Virus record (IMG/VR): IMGVR_UViG_2526164662_000036
Reading direction: 5' to 3' (one strand)
From: a virus
Lineage: Duplodnaviria > Heunggongvirae > Uroviricota > Caudoviricetes
Length of the DNA: 30,682 nt
Shown: positions 6,843-29,257 of the stretch, one piece after another
Numbering within the stretch: the first letter of the stretch is position 1
How the letters are laid out: each line of letters opens with the position of its first letter
Translations under genes and position numbers: made by a program
Notes under the pieces: generated by a model
What the model was told of the DNA's origin: nothing
The model's input: the letters and a program-made list of their open reading frames with translations, nothing else
Database searches by the model: none

Positions 6843-6869
6843 CAAAAAAGCCCGCCTGAACCGGCGGGC
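6843..6869 (-). terminator. rho-independent terminator downstream of lom
   Basis: Perfect 7-bp GC stem GCCCGCC/GGCGGGC (6850-6856 / 6863-6869) followed on the minus strand by a U6 run (plus-strand A6 at 6844-6849). Confidence 0.7.
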
Positions 6870-6896
6870 TGTCATAACACTGTGTTACCTGGCTAA

Positions 6897-7496
6897 TCAG
6901 AATTTATAACCGACACCCACGATGAAACCGTCAGTGCGCCAGTCGCCACTGCCGGAGCCTTCATAAGCAATATCAATGGCCACGGATTCGGTCGGGTTAA
7001 ACTGCACGCCAGCTCCCCACGCCAGAGACGTGTTGCTGTGGCGACCGTCATCACTTCCGGTCAGCACGTCGTGCGTTTTCCCCTTGTTGTCAGTTACGCG
7101 GAGATAATCCCCGGAGAAAGTCGACACACGGCTGTAAGACACACCCGCCATCGCATACGCGCTGAACCATTCATTCACGCGCACAGACGGCCCCGCCATC
7201 ACGCTGAACCAGCGGTTACGCACGGAATCTTCATGCCAGCGGATATCGCTGTAACGGGTAAGCTGGCGATTCTTGTCTCCTGCATAGCTGAATGACGTCA
7301 CCAGCCCCAGTGTGTCCGTAAACTCATAACGGTATTTCACGTTAATCCCGTTCAGATCATCGCTGCCGGGAACGTTCGTCGAGGCATGAAGATACCCCGC
7401 GCTCAGCGTGGACTGATGTTCAGATGCCCATGCAGACGCACCGGATACGGCCAGACAAATAGCTGCGGACAAAATGGCTGCATAAAGTTTACGCAT
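6897..7496 (-). CDS. lom: Lom outer membrane protein (Ail/Lom/PagC family beta-barrel)
   Basis: Signal peptide [25 protein letters not shown]-terminus ...[24 protein letters not shown] is the lambda Lom C-terminus; sits between J and stf as in lambda. Confidence 0.9.
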
Positions 7497-7518
7497 AATT
7501 ACCTCTCGCTTTTCTGCA

Positions 7519-7546
7519 ATAAAAAAGGCGTCATTCCTGACGCCCT
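7519..7546 (-). terminator. rho-independent terminator downstream of J (hairpin could function in both directions)
   Basis: Stem GGCGTCA/TGACGCC with a TTCC loop (7527-7544), flanked by A6 on the plus strand (U-run on the minus strand) and CTTTATT on the other side. Confidence 0.6.
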
Positions 7547-7566
7547 TTATTGGGGTTATAAATATT

Positions 7567-10500
7567 TCAACGAATACTGATACCGGAAGCCGCTTTTTTG
7601 GTCACAATCACCGTACAGTCGGTGATATTCCCTGCCCCCTGATTGCCTTTCTGGAAAATCTTAAACTCCAGAGTGACGCTACCACCACCACTAGGCATAT
7701 CAATAACTGCACTGTAACTACCGGGAATGGCCCCTTTAGTTTCTCTGGATGCGATTAATACACCGTTTTTGCGAACTTCAAAACCATAACCCGTGTATCT
7801 TGTACCTCCCGGGTTATTTCCGCTCCCCGGATCGTCATACGCTATACCGTTAAAAATAATGGGCGGAATAATAATCTGGCGGTCAAAGTTATGATCATCG
7901 CTGATGGTGACTGTAACCGTACCGTCTGGTGTTTCCGTGTTACCCCACGTACCGACTTTTTTCGGGAAGGCTTTTGATACAGCTTTAACGAAATCCCCTC
8001 TGACCTGGGTCGCCTCCAGCATGCCCTTAATCGTACAGTTCTGGTTAATCGTGACATTGTTGAGCGTTCCTGAGTTCGCATTCACACTGCCACTGATATC
8101 CGCATTTTTAGCGGTCAGCTTTCCGTCTGATGTCAGGGAAAATACCGGAGGACTGCCACCACTGGTAATGGTGGGGGCCGTCAGGCGCTTCAGGAACACG
8201 TCGTTCATGAATATCTGATTGCCCTGCGCCACAAACATCGGCGTTTCATTCCCGTTTGCCGGGTCAATAAACGCGATACGGTTAGCGGCAACCAGAAACT
8301 GGCTCAGCTTGCCTTCCTCCGTGTCCTCCATGCTGAGGCCAATACCCGCGACATAATGTTTGCCGTCTTTGGTCTGCTCAATTTTGACGCCCCACATGGC
8401 ATTCCATTTATCGTTAGCGTCCTTCCACTCTTTCGAAAACTCATCCAGTCTGCTGGCGTTATCCTCCGTCAGATCAACTTTTTCCAGCAGCTCCTTGCCG
8501 AGATGGGATTCGGTTATCTTGCCTTTGAAAAAATCCAGGTAACCTTCCGCATCATCGCTCGCCCGACCGACGGCCTCCACGAATGCCGATTTGCCAACGG
8601 TGTTCACACTGCGGATATAAAAGTAATAATCATGGCCCGGTTTGATATTGATACTGGCGGCTATCCAGTACAGCCCCGTGCCAAGGTAGCGGGCTGTGGT
8701 TTCAACCTGCCTGATATCGGTAATCCGCGTTTCCGAGAACCAGAACTCAAACTGTACCGTCGGATCATAAACCGCAAGATGCGGCGTGGCAGTTATCTGA
8801 AAATAGCCCGGCGTCAGCTCAATCCGCGACGGCGCTGCCGGGGCGGCAATCCGGAACGATACCGACGCCGGATCGCCCTGCTGTCCCCGGGCATTTACTG
8901 CCCGGACCGTCAGCGTGTAACGCCCCAGCGCCAGCTGCCTGAAGCGGTAAGTGGTTTCCGTCGTCCGGGCCGTGCTGACCAGCCGCTCACTGCCGTCATC
9001 GGCGGCCACGGTCAGGCGAAGCATAAAGCTCACACCCTTCACTACCTTCGGCGTGTCCCAGCGCGCCAGCACCTGATACTCCCCACTGTCTGCGGTGACT
9101 TCTGCGGTCAGGTGCTGCACCGCTGGCGGCGTGACACCATTCACCGTGCCGCTCTGGTCGCCGTCAAAGTGCGCTCCGTTATCCACGATGGCCTCTTTTT
9201 CCGGCACATGCTGCACGGCAGTGATGGCATACATGCCGTCGTCGTTCTCACGGATACTCACACAGCGGAACAGGCGCTGGCGCAGCGTCGGCAGCTTCAG
9301 CCCCCACACGCTGTATCCGGCAACGCCGTCAGGAACACGGCTCACTTTCACCTTCACGCCGTCGGTGACGGACTGAACCTCCACGCTGACCGGATTGCCA
9401 CTTCCGTCAACCAGGCTTATCAGCGTGGTACCGGAGGATGGCAGCGTGATTTCACGGTCGAGCGTCAGCGTCCGGGTCTGGCTGTTCACCGCCAGCACAC
9501 GCCCGCCGGTGCTGATCCACGCATAGTCATCATCACAGATTTCAATGACATCGCCCGGTACATGGCGAAGCCCTTCTGCGCCCACGCTGAAGTCCACGGT
9601 CTGCGTCTCCAGCAGCTCCGTTTTAATCAGCCACAGCCCGGCGCGGTGTGCCTCGCCCCGACTGGTACAGCCAAAGGCATCCATCTTCGTGACGTTACGA
9701 CCGTAACGGACAATGGCCTGCGTATCCTCCACAAGCTCTGTCGCCGTCTCCCAGCCGTTATTCGGGTCAATCCAGTTCACCTCAACGGCATTATGACGGT
9801 CCTTCAGGGCGCTGAAGCTGTAGCGGAACGGCGCGCCATCATCCGGCATCACCACATTACTGCGGTTATAGGTCCACACCTTATCCGATGGCCGGTCCTG
9901 CACGAACGTCAGCGTCTGCCCGTTCCATACCGGCATACAGCGCATCGCCGAGCAGAAATCACTGAGCACATCCCACGCCTTGCGCTGCGTGGTCAGGTAC
10001 GCATTACAGGTGATACGCGGTTCCGTGCCACCAAAGCCATCCGGCACCGACTGGTCGCAATTCTGGCCGATGACATACAGCGCCCATTTATCCACATCCG
10101 CCGCACCAAGACGTTTCCCCATGCCGTAGCGCGGATGGGTCAGCATATCCCACAGACACCAGGCCATGTTGTTGCTGTATGCCGGTTTTAACGTTCCGTC
10201 CCAGATACCGCTGTATTGTCGCGTCTGCGGGTTATAGTTCGACGGCACCTGCAGAATGCGCCCGCGAAGATGATAATTACGACTCACCTGCTGGCTGCCG
10301 AACTGCTCCGAATCCACCTGTACGCCGACCAGTGCCGTGTTCGGGTAGCACTGTTTCACATCGATGATTTCGGTGTATGACGACCAGAGCGTTTTGTTCT
10401 GCAGCTGGTCTGTGGTGCTGTCCGGCGTCATCCTGCGCATCCGGATATTAAACGGGCGCGGCGGCAGGTTATCCACCACCACCGAGGCCAGATACTGCGA

Positions 10501-25634: not shown

Positions 25635-25852
25635 CAGAACCTCGCCAGCCGGTACCCGGGATGCCCCCGTCGTCGTGTAATCAGAGCCGCAAGGCGGCGC
25701 TCCCACTCCTGCCGTCCCTGCCGGATCTCAGATAAGTTTTCCATGGTCATCTGCTGACCATTAAAGGTGACGGATTTTCCGTCCAGCACCGCCATTTCAG
25801 CTTCCGTATAACGCTGAATCATGGCTTCGATATCATTCTGGTTCATAACCAT
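25634..25852 (-). CDS. W: head-tail joining protein W-like
   Basis: 72 aa with a C-terminal ...RRRGHPGY motif resembling lambda gpW (...RRRGPAGFYV); between terminase and portal. Confidence 0.7.
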   Translation of the reverse strand: MVMNQNDIEAMIQRYTEAEMAVLDGKSVTFNGQQMTMENLSEIRQGRQEWERRLAALITRRRGHPGYRLARF

Positions 25853-27942
25853 CCTCCGGAAGTCAGCCAGGGGTTAACATCGTCAGTTACTGTTTTCTTC
25901 CGTTTTTGTTTTTTAACAGGCGTGGATACCGGTTCCGGTGAGGATGACGGTTCGGTACTGTCCTGGACACACTCCAGCCAGGTCTCCCGGCTCGCCCACT
26001 CCGGTGCATCCGGCCAGCGGATCTTTTCGTATCCATGCAGAATGACCAGAGCCTCGGCATACACCATCAGGTCAAAAGCTTCGTTGGCACCGCGACCCGG
26101 CTTACTCCATTTCCCGTCACTGCTCCGCTCTTCATACGTCAGTTCGTCGTAAAACCAGCTCCCCAGCCAGTCAGGGAAATGCACATAGCCTGGACCTGGC
26201 GAGTCACGCCATAACGCGTTATTCACCCGGTCTTTCAGGGCATCCGTCTGAAGAAGCCAGAGCGGCACATCACCTGCGGCCTGCGCCCGGCGGCCCGTTC
26301 GTCCGGTGTTATCAGGGAATGTACGGCTGATCAGTTTTGCGCGCCGGATGCTGTCACCCTTAAACAGGTAAATACGTTTACCAAGGCCATCACGACGGCA
26401 ACGACGCCAGAATTTATAGGCATTATCAGTGACCCCGTCTTCACCGCCGGAGTCCACCGCCATTGCCATCAGTCGCATTTGTTGAGAAGGATCGGAGGCC
26501 AGCGGCCAGCTTTTATGAAAAACATCCGTCAGCAGGACATCCCAGTCTTCCGGATAGCTGGCCGGATCAATTCGCTGGCTCTCCCCGTCGCAGTCACTGC
26601 GCAATGACTGCGTGATGTTGTAACGATCAATAATCCAGCGTTCGCCACGACTGCCATAGCCCGTTACCTGAACCACAAAACGGCGATGACGTCCCGCCTG
26701 CACATCCACTGTCGCCACAAGGAAATTAACGCCATCCGGCACACTGCGGGAAGGAACTGGCTCTGCCCGCTGCTCAAGCAGTTCACTTTTTCGTTGCTCC
26801 ATGCTGGCACGAGGAAGATAAGGCAATCCCCAGTCGGTGTTGATAACCGCCCTGAGTGTTTCTTCGCTTCCTGTCGCTTCATACTCCTGTTCTGCAGTCA
26901 GTAATTTGTAAACCAGTTGCGCCCAGGTCTGATACGCAGCAGCTGGCCCTTCCATCCAGAAACTGGCGATACGGGAGCGGCGCGGTTCACCGGAAACGTT
27001 GCCGTTACGATCAATGACCTGACCTTCACGCAACCAGACTCCTGCACTATTGAGCTCACGCTTTTTCTCCGCAGTGATAATGCCGCTGCAGTGCGGGCAA
27101 AGTAGATACGCCGCCTCACTGGCTTTAAAGGGATCCGGTTCATTACGGTAGCCGGTCATGGCATCCATGGCTGGCTGAAAATATTCACCGCAGTGCGGAC
27201 ATGACCAGTACCAGCGGCGGCGGTCACCACGATTGTAAAGGGAAAGAATACCAGTCGTCGGTGGCGCTTCATGAGGCGACTTACGTCGCCATTTGCTGTC
27301 GCAGATGTCACGTCCCGGCGAGCTCTCCACCAGAGTCATCCCAGCGGACATAAATGTGGTGGTACGTTTTGAGGCCAGGGAGAAACCATCACCCTCGCTG
27401 TCGATATTCTCCGGAAAACGGTCGTAATCGGTTAAGGCGACAAACCGGTAATCCGACGACGACATAATGTTGACCGAGGGCCAACCAATTTTAAGGAACG
27501 AGCCATCTCTGAACGTCTTATCATGGACATTATTGTCGTTACGACGTGGACTCATTCTTTTCTTTACCGCCGCACTGCTTCTGAACGTTCTGTCGAGGCG
27601 CTTTTTAGAATGCTCGCGGGCCTTATCTTCGGTCATCTGCACAACGAGCATGTCCGAAGGATCGCAAACGATGGTATAGACAATCCATCCATCGATCAGA
27701 CCAATGGTCTTCCCTGTTCGCGCAGGACCAACAAAAATCACCGCATCGTATTCACGCGATGCCAGGCAGTTCATGGGCTCAATGATGTAGGGTGTCAGTT
27801 CAGGATCCCATGGCACCGAGTTACCAGCCCCCTTGGGAACACGCATGAATTTTTTAACAGCCTCCGAAATCGGCATGCGACGTGGTGGGGAAAATCCTGC
27901 CGATATGTCCCTTCCCAAATTTCGGGCTGATGAAAAACCCAT
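25843..27942 (-). CDS. A: terminase large subunit (lambda gpA-like)
   Basis: 699 aa; ATG at 27942 with an AGGAGG Shine-Dalgarno; Walker-A-like GPARTGKT; size and position as lambda A. Confidence 0.9.
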   Translation of the reverse strand: MGFSSARNLGRDISAGFSPPRRMPISEAVKKFMRVPKGAGNSVPWDPELTPYIIEPMNCLASREYDAVIFVGPARTGKTIGLIDGWIVYTIVCDPSDMLVVQMTEDKAREHSKKRLDRTFRSSAAVKKRMSPRRNDNNVHDKTFRDGSFLKIGWPSVNIMSSSDYRFVALTDYDRFPENIDSEGDGFSLASKRTTTFMSAGMTLVESSPGRDICDSKWRRKSPHEAPPTTGILSLYNRGDRRRWYWSCPHCGEYFQPAMDAMTGYRNEPDPFKASEAAYLLCPHCSGIITAEKKRELNSAGVWLREGQVIDRNGNVSGEPRRSRIASFWMEGPAAAYQTWAQLVYKLLTAEQEYEATGSEETLRAVINTDWGLPYLPRASMEQRKSELLEQRAEPVPSRSVPDGVNFLVATVDVQAGRHRRFVVQVTGYGSRGERWIIDRYNITQSLRSDCDGESQRIDPASYPEDWDVLLTDVFHKSWPLASDPSQQMRLMAMAVDSGGEDGVTDNAYKFWRRCRRDGLGKRIYLFKGDSIRRAKLISRTFPDNTGRTGRRAQAAGDVPLWLLQTDALKDRVNNALWRDSPGPGYVHFPDWLGSWFYDELTYEERSSDGKWSKPGRGANEAFDLMVYAEALVILHGYEKIRWPDAPEWASRETWLECVQDSTEPSSSPEPVSTPVKKQKRKKTVTDDVNPWLTSGGWL

Positions 27943-27950
27943 TATTCCTC

Positions 27951-28478
27951 CTAGAGACTCTCTCCTTCCTCATCAGGAATTAATTCAGCAGCACAAGCCT
28001 CGTAGGATTTTTCCTGAAGAGTGTATCGCAGGTCATCAATGGCCTGCTGTACAACGCCGACGGCCTGAGGAGTCAGGGCGCAATCGCGTTCAAGAACATC
28101 CGGAATTGTCTCCAGAACCTGGACGACAGCCTTTCTCATGGACGAATAGACGATGACTACTTCATCAACGGGGATGAGTTTTCGCTGCTCCTTTTCCAGC
28201 TTGATCCTTTCATTTTCAGATTGGTACCAGTCCTTTCTCTCTTTCGGCTCCATACGGGATGGATCATGAACAGAGTCTGCTGCCTCATGCTTCACACTAA
28301 ACAGGGCTGGCCCGACATGCTGCAGGGCGTAAACGGGGTTCCCCCTGACAGTCGCAGCCACAGGAGTGTTAGCCGCGAGGAGCCGTTTTTTTACTGTGTC
28401 CCGGTGAAGCCCAAAGGCCTCAGCGATTTTAAAAACACTCCAGTAATAAGCATCACCGATCCCGCTCACATTTGACAT
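27951..28478 (-). CDS. nu1: terminase small subunit (Nu1-like)
   Basis: 175 aa from the ATG at 28478 (GGAG Shine-Dalgarno 8 nt upstream); ends 8 nt before the large-subunit start; lies directly beside the cos-like site. Confidence 0.75.
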   Translation of the reverse strand: MSNVSGIGDAYYWSVFKIAEAFGLHRDTVKKRLLAANTPVAATVRGNPVYALQHVGPALFSVKHEAADSVHDPSRMEPKERKDWYQSENERIKLEKEQRKLIPVDEVVIVYSSMRKAVVQVLETIPDVLERDCALTPQAVGVVQQAIDDLRYTLQEKSYEACAAELIPDEEGESL

Positions 28479-28639
28479 AAGCAACTCCATCTGGCAGGTG
28501 AAAATCATGTTTATTTATATATTTCAATTAATTGCAAACTGGTCTAATGACAGGGAGAAAGAAATATTGTACAGGTGAAAAGAGAAATAACTTTTAATTA
28601 TCAATAAATTACCAAACATGCTGCCGCCGCCATGGAAAT

Positions 28640-28700
28640 GCAAAAACTAGCCTTTTTCCGCGACGCTCCCGCCCCGTGGCAGGGGCCCCCACCGGGAGGA
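28640..28700 (-). other. candidate cohesive-end site (cosN core at about 28659-28676) with adjacent cosB-like repeats toward the terminase gene
   Basis: Minus strand reads ...GGTCCTCCCGGTGGGGGCCCCTGCCACG GGGCGGGAGCGT CGCGGAAAAAGGC..., close to the lambda junction ...GGTCCTTTCCGGTGATCCGACAGGTTACG GGGCGGCGACCT CGCGGGTTTTCGC... as I recall it. Confidence 0.6.
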
Positions 28701-28703
28701 CCC

Positions 28704-28727
28704 GACAGCCTGACAGCCTGACAGCCG
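28704..28727. repeat. three tandem copies of the octamer GACAGCC(T/G) on the cosQ side of cos
   Basis: GACAGCCT GACAGCCT GACAGCCG at 28704-28727. Confidence 0.8.
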
Positions 28728-29050
28728 TGATGAGCATCTGATACAGCGCTTTACATAATGGCATAGGAATAATTCAGAAGGACATCACAGCATGCCCACA
28801 CAAATTAGTGTGAGTGTCCTGTTTCTTCCTACGCACAGGACTGACGAGCATGAGGGGAAAATATGCGAACCATAAATGCCTCATCTTCAGCAATGCAACC
28901 GGCATCCGAACAGGACGATATTGTAAATTCACCTAATTACGAGGACATTGCAGTAGTTGAATTGCAGCTCTGTATTAGCCTGACAGTGACAGAATGCGAT
29001 ATTGACTCTGTCACAGGTGAAATAGTTTGAATGATTAGCAGTTATGGTGC

Positions 29051-29257
29051 TCAGTCAACCACCAGGGAATAATCCTTCGAATTCTTATCGTGCTTCACCA
29101 ACGCTGCCTCAATTGCCCTGAATGCTTCCAGAGACACCTGATGTTCTATACATGCAATTACAACATCCGGGTAACTCATAGAAATGGTGCTATTAAGCAT
29201 ATTTTTTACACGAATCAGATCCAACGAGACTTCATCAGCAGATTGTTCTTTATTCAT
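29051..29257 (-). CDS. hypothetical small prophage protein (68 aa, mildly acidic)
   Basis: ORF with a GGAG motif about 9 nt upstream of the ATG; in K-12 Qin this position is occupied by ynfO, but I cannot confirm identity from sequence. Confidence 0.5.

Follow-up and report, generated by a model that had tools for sequence, protein, structure and literature searches.

The DNA analysed here, called the window, is a stretch of 30,682 nucleotides from a Caudoviricetes record (IMG/VR IMGVR_UViG_2526164662_000036). Relative to the standard lambda orientation it is reversed: on its minus strand, late-region DNA leads into the segment studied here and then into the head genes, namely terS, terL, a small ORF at the position of W, a portal gene and a fused protease-capsid gene. 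The segment sits where the late (lysis) region meets the head genes, immediately upstream of terS, which is followed by a terL of the gpA family; on its late-region side, one stretch is 86% identical to lambda 47,996-48,090. Positions are numbered from bp 1, the first G of GGGCGGGAGCGT, the window position being 28675 minus bp.

The anatomy of the segment and its gene context can be read directly from the DNA. On the minus strand, GGGTCCT (28703-28697) is followed by 20 bp, by GGGCGGGAGCGT with CG on either side, by an AT-rich stretch of about 185 bp and then by terS. The string at its upstream end reads GGCTGTCA GGCTGTCA GGCTGTC GGGTCCT CCCGGTGGGGGCCCCTGCCACG / GGGCGGGAGCGT / CGCGGAAAAAGGCTAGTTTTTGC. 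The features are the following, from the late-region side to the head genes:

28704-28727, minus strand: octamer array, GGCTGTCA three times on the minus strand (GACAGCCT/G on the plus strand), adjoining cos but outside it
28697-28703, minus strand: cosQ, GGGTCCT, bp -29 to -23
28661-28676, minus strand: cosN, GGGCGGGAGCGT between two CG, with a predicted 12-nt 5' cohesive end from 28674 to 28663
28640-28662, minus strand: conserved cosN-proximal spacer CGCGGAAAAAGGCTAGTTTTTGC (A5-N6-T5), bp 13-35
28612-28639, minus strand: type-specific block at the position of lambda R3, bp 36-63, with core CATGGCGGCGGCAGCATG at bp 41-58
28599-28611, plus strand: IHF consensus TATCAATAAATTA (WATCAANNNNTTR), bp 64-76
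28571-28587, minus strand: repeat R-a, TTTCTCTTTTCACCTGT, bp 88-104, containing the 10-mer TTTTCACCTG
28550-28564, minus strand: repeat R-b, TTTCTTTCTCCCTGT, bp 111-125
28495-28504, minus strand: R-c, second exact TTTTCACCTG, bp 171-180, shortly before the terS ribosome-binding site
27951-28478, minus strand: terS, 175 aa, DUF1441 / PHROG 141 small terminase (PF07278, phrog_141)
25843-27942, minus strand: terL, 699 aa, large terminase of the lambda gpA family, ATPase and endonuclease (PF05876, PF20454)

The terS product matches PF07278 (E 1.6e-44) and phrog_141, 'terminase small subunit' (E 8e-65), and is 100% identical to the proteins of phages cdtI and Tritos. The ATG of the longest ORF, at 28508, is not its start, because cdtI and Tritos read CCTG there; translation begins either at bp 197 (28478, MSNVSG) or at bp 185 (ATG at 28490, MELLMSN). 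A search of genome contigs with terS retrieved two loci, and Trabulsiella served as outgroup. With the Nu1 family (PF07471), terS gave no Pfam match at E<=10 and a BLASTP E value of 4.6, and a search of the sequences of solved structures returned nothing meaningful. When the DUF1441 profile was aligned to Nu1 with hhalign, residues 13-57 fell on Nu1 residues 3-48, a winged helix-turn-helix, with an E value of 8e-4 and a probability of only 24%; FG...T... and RGN.VY (versus KGNEVLY) are in register in this alignment. The small terminase very likely works like Nu1, yet stands outside the Nu1 family. As for terL, it carries the gpA domains PF05876 and PF20454 and aligns from end to end with lambda gpA at 24% identity (E 3e-22).

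A promoter and terminator scan of 28300-29100 found none within cos. A 51-aa ORF at 28609-28764 of the minus strand crosses cosN and is almost certainly spurious; in the HannyBb record (locus L007, 835-1067), several CDSs are annotated as 'hypothetical protein' over the cos region.

The cohesive end and cosQ

The 12-mer GGGCGGGAGCGT is found at 28663-28674 on the minus strand, as its sole exact copy in the window, and is by itself statistically unremarkable. Its first six positions and both flanking CG dinucleotides are those of lambda, the differences being confined to bp 7, 8, 9 and 11, and the two CG stand exactly 12 bp apart, as they do in lambda. Partial two-fold symmetry is visible around it, with 8 of 16 and 12 of 22 positions rotationally symmetric (10 of 16 in lambda).

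The preliminary description had seen here a cos site with a divergent cohesive end, on the grounds of its likeness to lambda. Taken as a pairwise alignment, this likeness is marginal: the score of the core against lambda cos is reached by 26 of 2000 shuffles, and another place in the window scores equally. Pairwise alignment was replaced as the test by comparative data and by a composite positional pattern set a priori from lambda, GGGTCCT-N19-23-CGGGGCGG-N6-CGCGG. The window has a single match to this pattern, and 100 shuffles have none. The marginal alignment and its equal elsewhere could speak for a chance GC-rich resemblance in a phage that packages by a headful (pac) mechanism. We give this explanation hardly any credit in view of the composite pattern, the gpA-family terL and a core conserved across many phages, whose records start there.

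Two independent phage records, those of cdtI (47,021 bp) and Tritos (46,360 bp), start exactly with GGGCGGGAGCGT and end with ...CTGCCACG (...CCACG). The Tritos paper, which reports that this phage forms plaques and virions, does not give the method by which the record start was chosen (PMC9928086). These starts are strong, though indirect, evidence for reading the segment as the cos site of a lambdoid prophage with a divergent end. A literature search with the 12-mer, its reverse complement and related 12-mers returned only unrelated primer matches and the LLS/mEp213 paper.

By homology with lambda, the nicks would fall between 28675 and 28674 on the minus strand and between 28663 and 28662 on the plus strand, leaving a 12-nt 5' overhang. 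We regard a 12-nt end lying exactly at GGGCGGGAGCGT as probable. The overhang length is not fixed in the clade, since relatives have spacings of 9, 10 or 11 nt between the flanking dinucleotides (PMC9303873 and sequence comparison). Phage Cr-LKS3, whose small terminase belongs to the same family as that of the window (38% identity across 81% of the query), reportedly has 5' cohesive ends of 9 nt beginning with GGGC and with the same flanking bases (PMC9303873). Among O157-type prophages, VT1-Sakai reads CACG-GGGCGGGCGGG-CGCGG (locus L016, about 301-371), with 11 nt between the CG flanks, and CP-1639 reads CACG-GGGCGGGCGG-CGCGG (locus L017, about 301-376), with 10 nt; these sequences suggest that cohesive-end length varies within their clade. 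Displaced nicks, giving the window a shorter or shifted end of, for example, 9-11 nt, would find precedent in these three cases. Such a displacement is nevertheless unlikely here, as the window keeps the lambda spacing of 12 and the cdtI and Tritos records begin at the first G.

In lambda-like phages, cosN bp 7-12 are reported to be naturally variable and tolerant to mutation, with cosQ and the CG flanks conserved (Feiss and colleagues, PMC4669245). By analogy, the variant bases of the window in bp 7-12 would matter mainly for annealing with heterologous ends, and not for recognition.

The cosQ heptamer GGGTCCT, whose role is taken from work on lambda (PMC4669245), is identical in the two phages and sits 1 bp closer to cosN in the window (bp -29 to -23, versus -30 to -24 in lambda). 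It occurs once in the window, where it directly abuts the octamer array. Among the 121 IMG/VR loci sharing the window's cosN, it is intact in 114, preceded by at least six unrelated upstream sequences, and BLAST breakpoints in E. coli genomes fall exactly at the heptamer (query position 98).

Three tandem octamers had been reported at 28704-28727, and they are present: Tandem Repeats Finder delimits 28704-28726, period 8, 2.9 copies, 100% matches, unit GACAGCCT. The function proposed for them, that of a packaging element on the cosQ side, is not supported. In the same 121 loci the octamer is found in no copy in 33, one copy in 1, two copies in 78 and three copies in 9, and it is absent from the inducible phage cdtI, which has unrelated DNA upstream of GGGTCCT. 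Because the array varies from 0 to 3 copies in relatives and is missing from cdtI, it is variable DNA upstream of cos and no packaging element. The cosQ itself, at 28697-28703, had gone unmentioned.

cosB and packaging specificity

Comparison of the loci shows directly what is conserved and where the modules end. The cosQ-cosN core of the window and its spacer precede at least four cosB sequences, each with its own type of DUF1441 terS: type A in the window, cdtI and Tritos, type B in mEp460-like and type C in PhiR40_1-like loci, and type D in a single locus. The small terminases of types B and C are about 41% identical to that of type A. Since a single cosN stands before at least four cosB/terS types, it is cosB, not the end sequence, that sets specificity. 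The idea that the divergent cohesive end does so is not supported; bp 7-12 are reported to be functionally tolerant (PMC4669245). The same division is known for lambda and phage 21, which have cosQ and cosN in common and their specificity in cosB and terS (PMC4669245). From the sequences compared, packaging specificity would thus reside in cosB and terS, travelling together as one module. Of 5426 complete E. coli genomes, 2112 match the region in some form and 657 over at least 80% of its length. Throughout this large group of E. coli prophages, the cosQ-cosN core is a shared module, to which an exchangeable cosB-terS cassette adds the specificity.

The spacer, which reads CGCGGAAAAAGGCTAGTTTTTG over bp 13-34 as shared by the types, is common to all four and recognisable in relatives from Providencia, Trabulsiella and Gifsy-2; from about bp 34 on, the cosB types split. 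Compared with lambda in register, 17 of 33 positions match over bp 13-45, and past bp 45 cosB is unrelated to the lambda sequence (47 of 155 positions). Within type A, bp 41-59 are nearly invariant in 44 loci and partly conserved in the Providencia and Trabulsiella relatives. In lambda, the critical R3 site occupies bp 50-65 (PMC9026076). By its position, the block at bp 36-63 with its core CATGGCGGCGGCAGCATG is the best candidate for the primary TerS site, the bases contacted by TerS being predicted here by homology.

Next to it, the IHF consensus WATCAANNNNTTR at 28599-28611 is the sole match on both strands of the 30.7-kb window. This predicted site is invariant in the 44 type-A loci, and types B, C and D, like the Providencia and Trabulsiella relatives, have an ATTGA(T/A) core equally far from cosN. 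It is a candidate equivalent of the lambda I1 site, and its use by IHF is proposed by analogy with lambda.

The two T-rich direct repeats noticed earlier on the terS side are there, R-a at 28571-28587 and R-b at 28550-28564 of the minus strand. They align only with two gaps, for a score of 21. The best direct self-match in the 161-bp cosB scores 22, which 13 of 300 dinucleotide shuffles reach (mean 16.3, sd 2.5), so that the pair is not above chance by itself; statistics of repeats within cosB, direct and inverted, were likewise not significant. Both repeats are polymorphic. Among 44-45 type-A loci, R-a has C100G in 11, C98T in 4 and T102A in a single one; C120T is found in R-b in 7 of 44 loci, and the T-run of R-b differs by 1-2 bases in cdtI and Tritos. 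Lying at about bp 88-125, downstream of the IHF site, they could at best be R2 or R1, not R3 (bp 50-65). The 10-mer TTTTCACCTG occurs twice, and only the copy beside terS, R-c, is invariant in intact type-A loci. R-c lies outside the segment delimited in the preliminary description; Providencia phage PSTCR8lys, which has a 56% identical terS, retains it as TTTTCACCTGACAGA. An inverted repeat at 28506-28523 / 28603-28620 was also considered and rejected, being AT-rich and with a CATG arm that is not conserved in cdtI or Tritos.

That the octamer array and the two T-rich repeats together determine specificity, as a cosQ-side element and R sites, could be argued from the contact of the array with cosQ and from the resemblance of the repeats, within cosB, to the T-rich R sequences of lambda. 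The variable copy number of the array, its absence from inducible cdtI, the chance-level match of R-a and R-b, their substitutions (C100G in 11 loci, C120T in 7) and their place downstream of the IHF site, away from the R3 position (PMC9026076), make this very improbable. We retain the view that cosB, with its terS, carries the specificity.

The type-A repeats are direct, not inverted, and no clear lambda-style triplet of R3, inverted R2 and R1 can be named among them; Gifsy-1, Gifsy-2 and types B and C show this triplet plainly, by reading of the sequences. The cosB served by the DUF1441 small terminase of the window may be organised around an IHF site, with a GC-rich quasi-palindrome (CATG-N10-CATG, bp 41-58) and direct TTTTCACCTG repeats on its flanks, in place of the lambda plan R3/IHF/inverted R2/R1, a tentative proposal that we weigh together with the satellite reading discussed below.

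A substitution in terS, R26W, at the start of the predicted recognition helix, is found in three loci (L075, L089 and L133), all of them among the 11 with C100G; three more C100G loci, IMG/VR loci of type A, have a frameshifted terS. We rejected this co-occurrence as proof, since C100G is also found with wild-type terS. It may reflect simple linkage or give a hint of co-variation.

PICI-like islands carrying the type-A cos

A natural transplant delimits the site. An island of about 10 kb, resembling phage-inducible chromosomal islands (PICI), carries bp -29 to +204 (28703 to 28471 of the window), 233 bp at 91-93% identity, and has no other similarity to the phage flanks; the cos segment is bracketed by terminator-like hairpins. 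It follows that cos begins with the first G of cosQ and stops at the start codon of terS. Two copies of the island are as follows:

locus L080, 1010-10856: PICI-like island, cos at 7610-7842
locus L143, 6161-16041: PICI-like island of E. coli 266917_2, between cspD and clpS

The island is also present in loci L024, L113 and L139. Its gene order is integrase, regulator, Icd-like gene, DUF4222, D5-type primase, SSB, cos, ClpP-protease/major-capsid fusion and DUF1441 small terminase. The protease-capsid fusion is 57% identical to that of the window, and the helix-turn-helix of its small terminase is of the type B/C kind, not type A. The SSB-cos-capsid junction is covered to at least 80% in 138 of the 5426 complete E. 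coli genomes.

In two IMG/VR loci, L024 (836-1774 and 1975 onward) and L139 (9171-9305 and 13696-13938), the island appears to interrupt the terL of a type-B phage, with residues 20-332 encoded upstream of it and residues 325-405 resuming downstream; in L080, it adjoins a fragment of a lambda-family portal gene. These could be cases of a satellite integrating into prophage head genes, or simply rearranged defective prophages.

A complete cos module appears to have been captured by an island that has its own capsid gene and a type B/C small terminase, which hints at a satellite exploiting helpers of two packaging specificities. Taken jointly with the non-lambda plan of cosB proposed above, this remains speculative and, in our estimate, rather doubtful.

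The cos site of the window among those of known phages

We consider it highly probable that a lambda-like prophage has its cos site, ordered cosQ - cosN - cosB, at 28471-28703 of the minus strand. By analogy with lambda (PMC4669245, PMC9026076), the DUF1441 small terminase would bind the AT-rich cosB, about bp 36-196, and IHF would bend the DNA at bp 64-76 and so aid this binding. Once at cosB, terS would anchor the gpA-type terL for staggered nicks, at bp -1/1 on one strand and bp 12/13 on the other. These nicks, at GGGCGGGAGCGT between its two CG, would yield virion DNA with 12-nt 5' cohesive ends, and GGGTCCT, 29 bp upstream, would direct the cut that terminates the packaging of each genome. 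Locating cos in this way fixes the physical ends and the standard orientation of the prophage genome and points to the helper or satellite DNAs that its terminase would be able to package.

The site could be a genuine cos by descent and yet an inactive relic in a defective, non-packaging prophage. Precedents exist: the prophage of E. coli E2865 (NZ_AP018808, locus L140) has a cos 100% identical over 321 bp with terL and the protease-capsid gene frameshifted according to PGAP (6859-8948 and 10610-12321), and several IMG/VR loci with the window's cos have a truncated terS. An identical cos does not, as E2865 illustrates, imply an active phage. The reading frames of terS, terL, the portal gene and the protease-capsid fusion are uninterrupted in the window. 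Few differences separate it from plaque-forming Tritos between bp -60 and +260; the two share cosQ, cosN, the IHF site and R-c without change, as well as a 100% identical terS. We judge a relic to be improbable, slightly more so than displaced nicks, and keep to the reading of a functional cos.

The closest systems are cdtI (AB285204 / NC_009514) and Tritos (OV696610), which have the same 12-mer, the same cosQ heptamer at the same spacing and the same cosB type with few substitutions; cdtI differs in the DNA upstream of GGGTCCT, which is unrelated and devoid of octamers. With lambda, the window shares GGGTCCT, a CG-flanked 12-bp cosN, an A/T-tract spacer, an IHF site in cosB (PMC9026076) and a gpA-family terL, and the distance from bp 1 to the terS start is similar, about 200 bp (bp 197 in the window, 191 in lambda). 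It differs from lambda by a terL only 24% identical, by a small terminase of the DUF1441 and not the Nu1 family, and by the recognisable R3 / inverted R2 / R1 of the latter.

Gifsy-1 has the same cosQ heptamer, and its record shows at the equivalent position GGGCGGCAGCGT, which differs from the 12-mer of the window only at bp 7. This fits the natural variation reported for Gifsy-1 cosN, which differs from lambda at bp 8, 9 and 11 (PMC4669245). Gifsy-1 is nonetheless distinct by its Nu1-family terS and, by reading of the sequence, its plain lambda-style R3 / inverted R2 / R1.

Lambdoid phages of the mEp460, PhiR40_1 and mEp213/LLS types resemble the window in their DUF1441 terS family and fused protease-capsid heads. 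The cosQ-cosN-spacer core of mEp460_ev081 and PhiR40_1 is identical to that of the window, mEp460 differs only at bp 12, and mEp213 and LLS have GGGCGGCGCGCT in place of the 12-mer (PMC12315714). The mEp460_ev081 record (LR597641, locus L008, about 1140-1370) contains a tract of about 107 bp within cosB that is duplicated in tandem and begins over again at GGCTAGTTTTTGAAATTTCATCC; this is probably an artefact of assembly or of end joining at the ends of the genome. In these lambdoid phages, cosB departs from that of the window at about bp 34, and the identity of terS is only about 41%; presumably, their packaging specificities differ from that of the window. Natural variation of cosN bp 7-12 and modular cosB specificity are already established for lambda-like phages. 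Among them, the window holds an ordinary cos site, correctly spotted from the start, whose 12-mer is a common natural variant already marking the ends of two deposited phage genomes.
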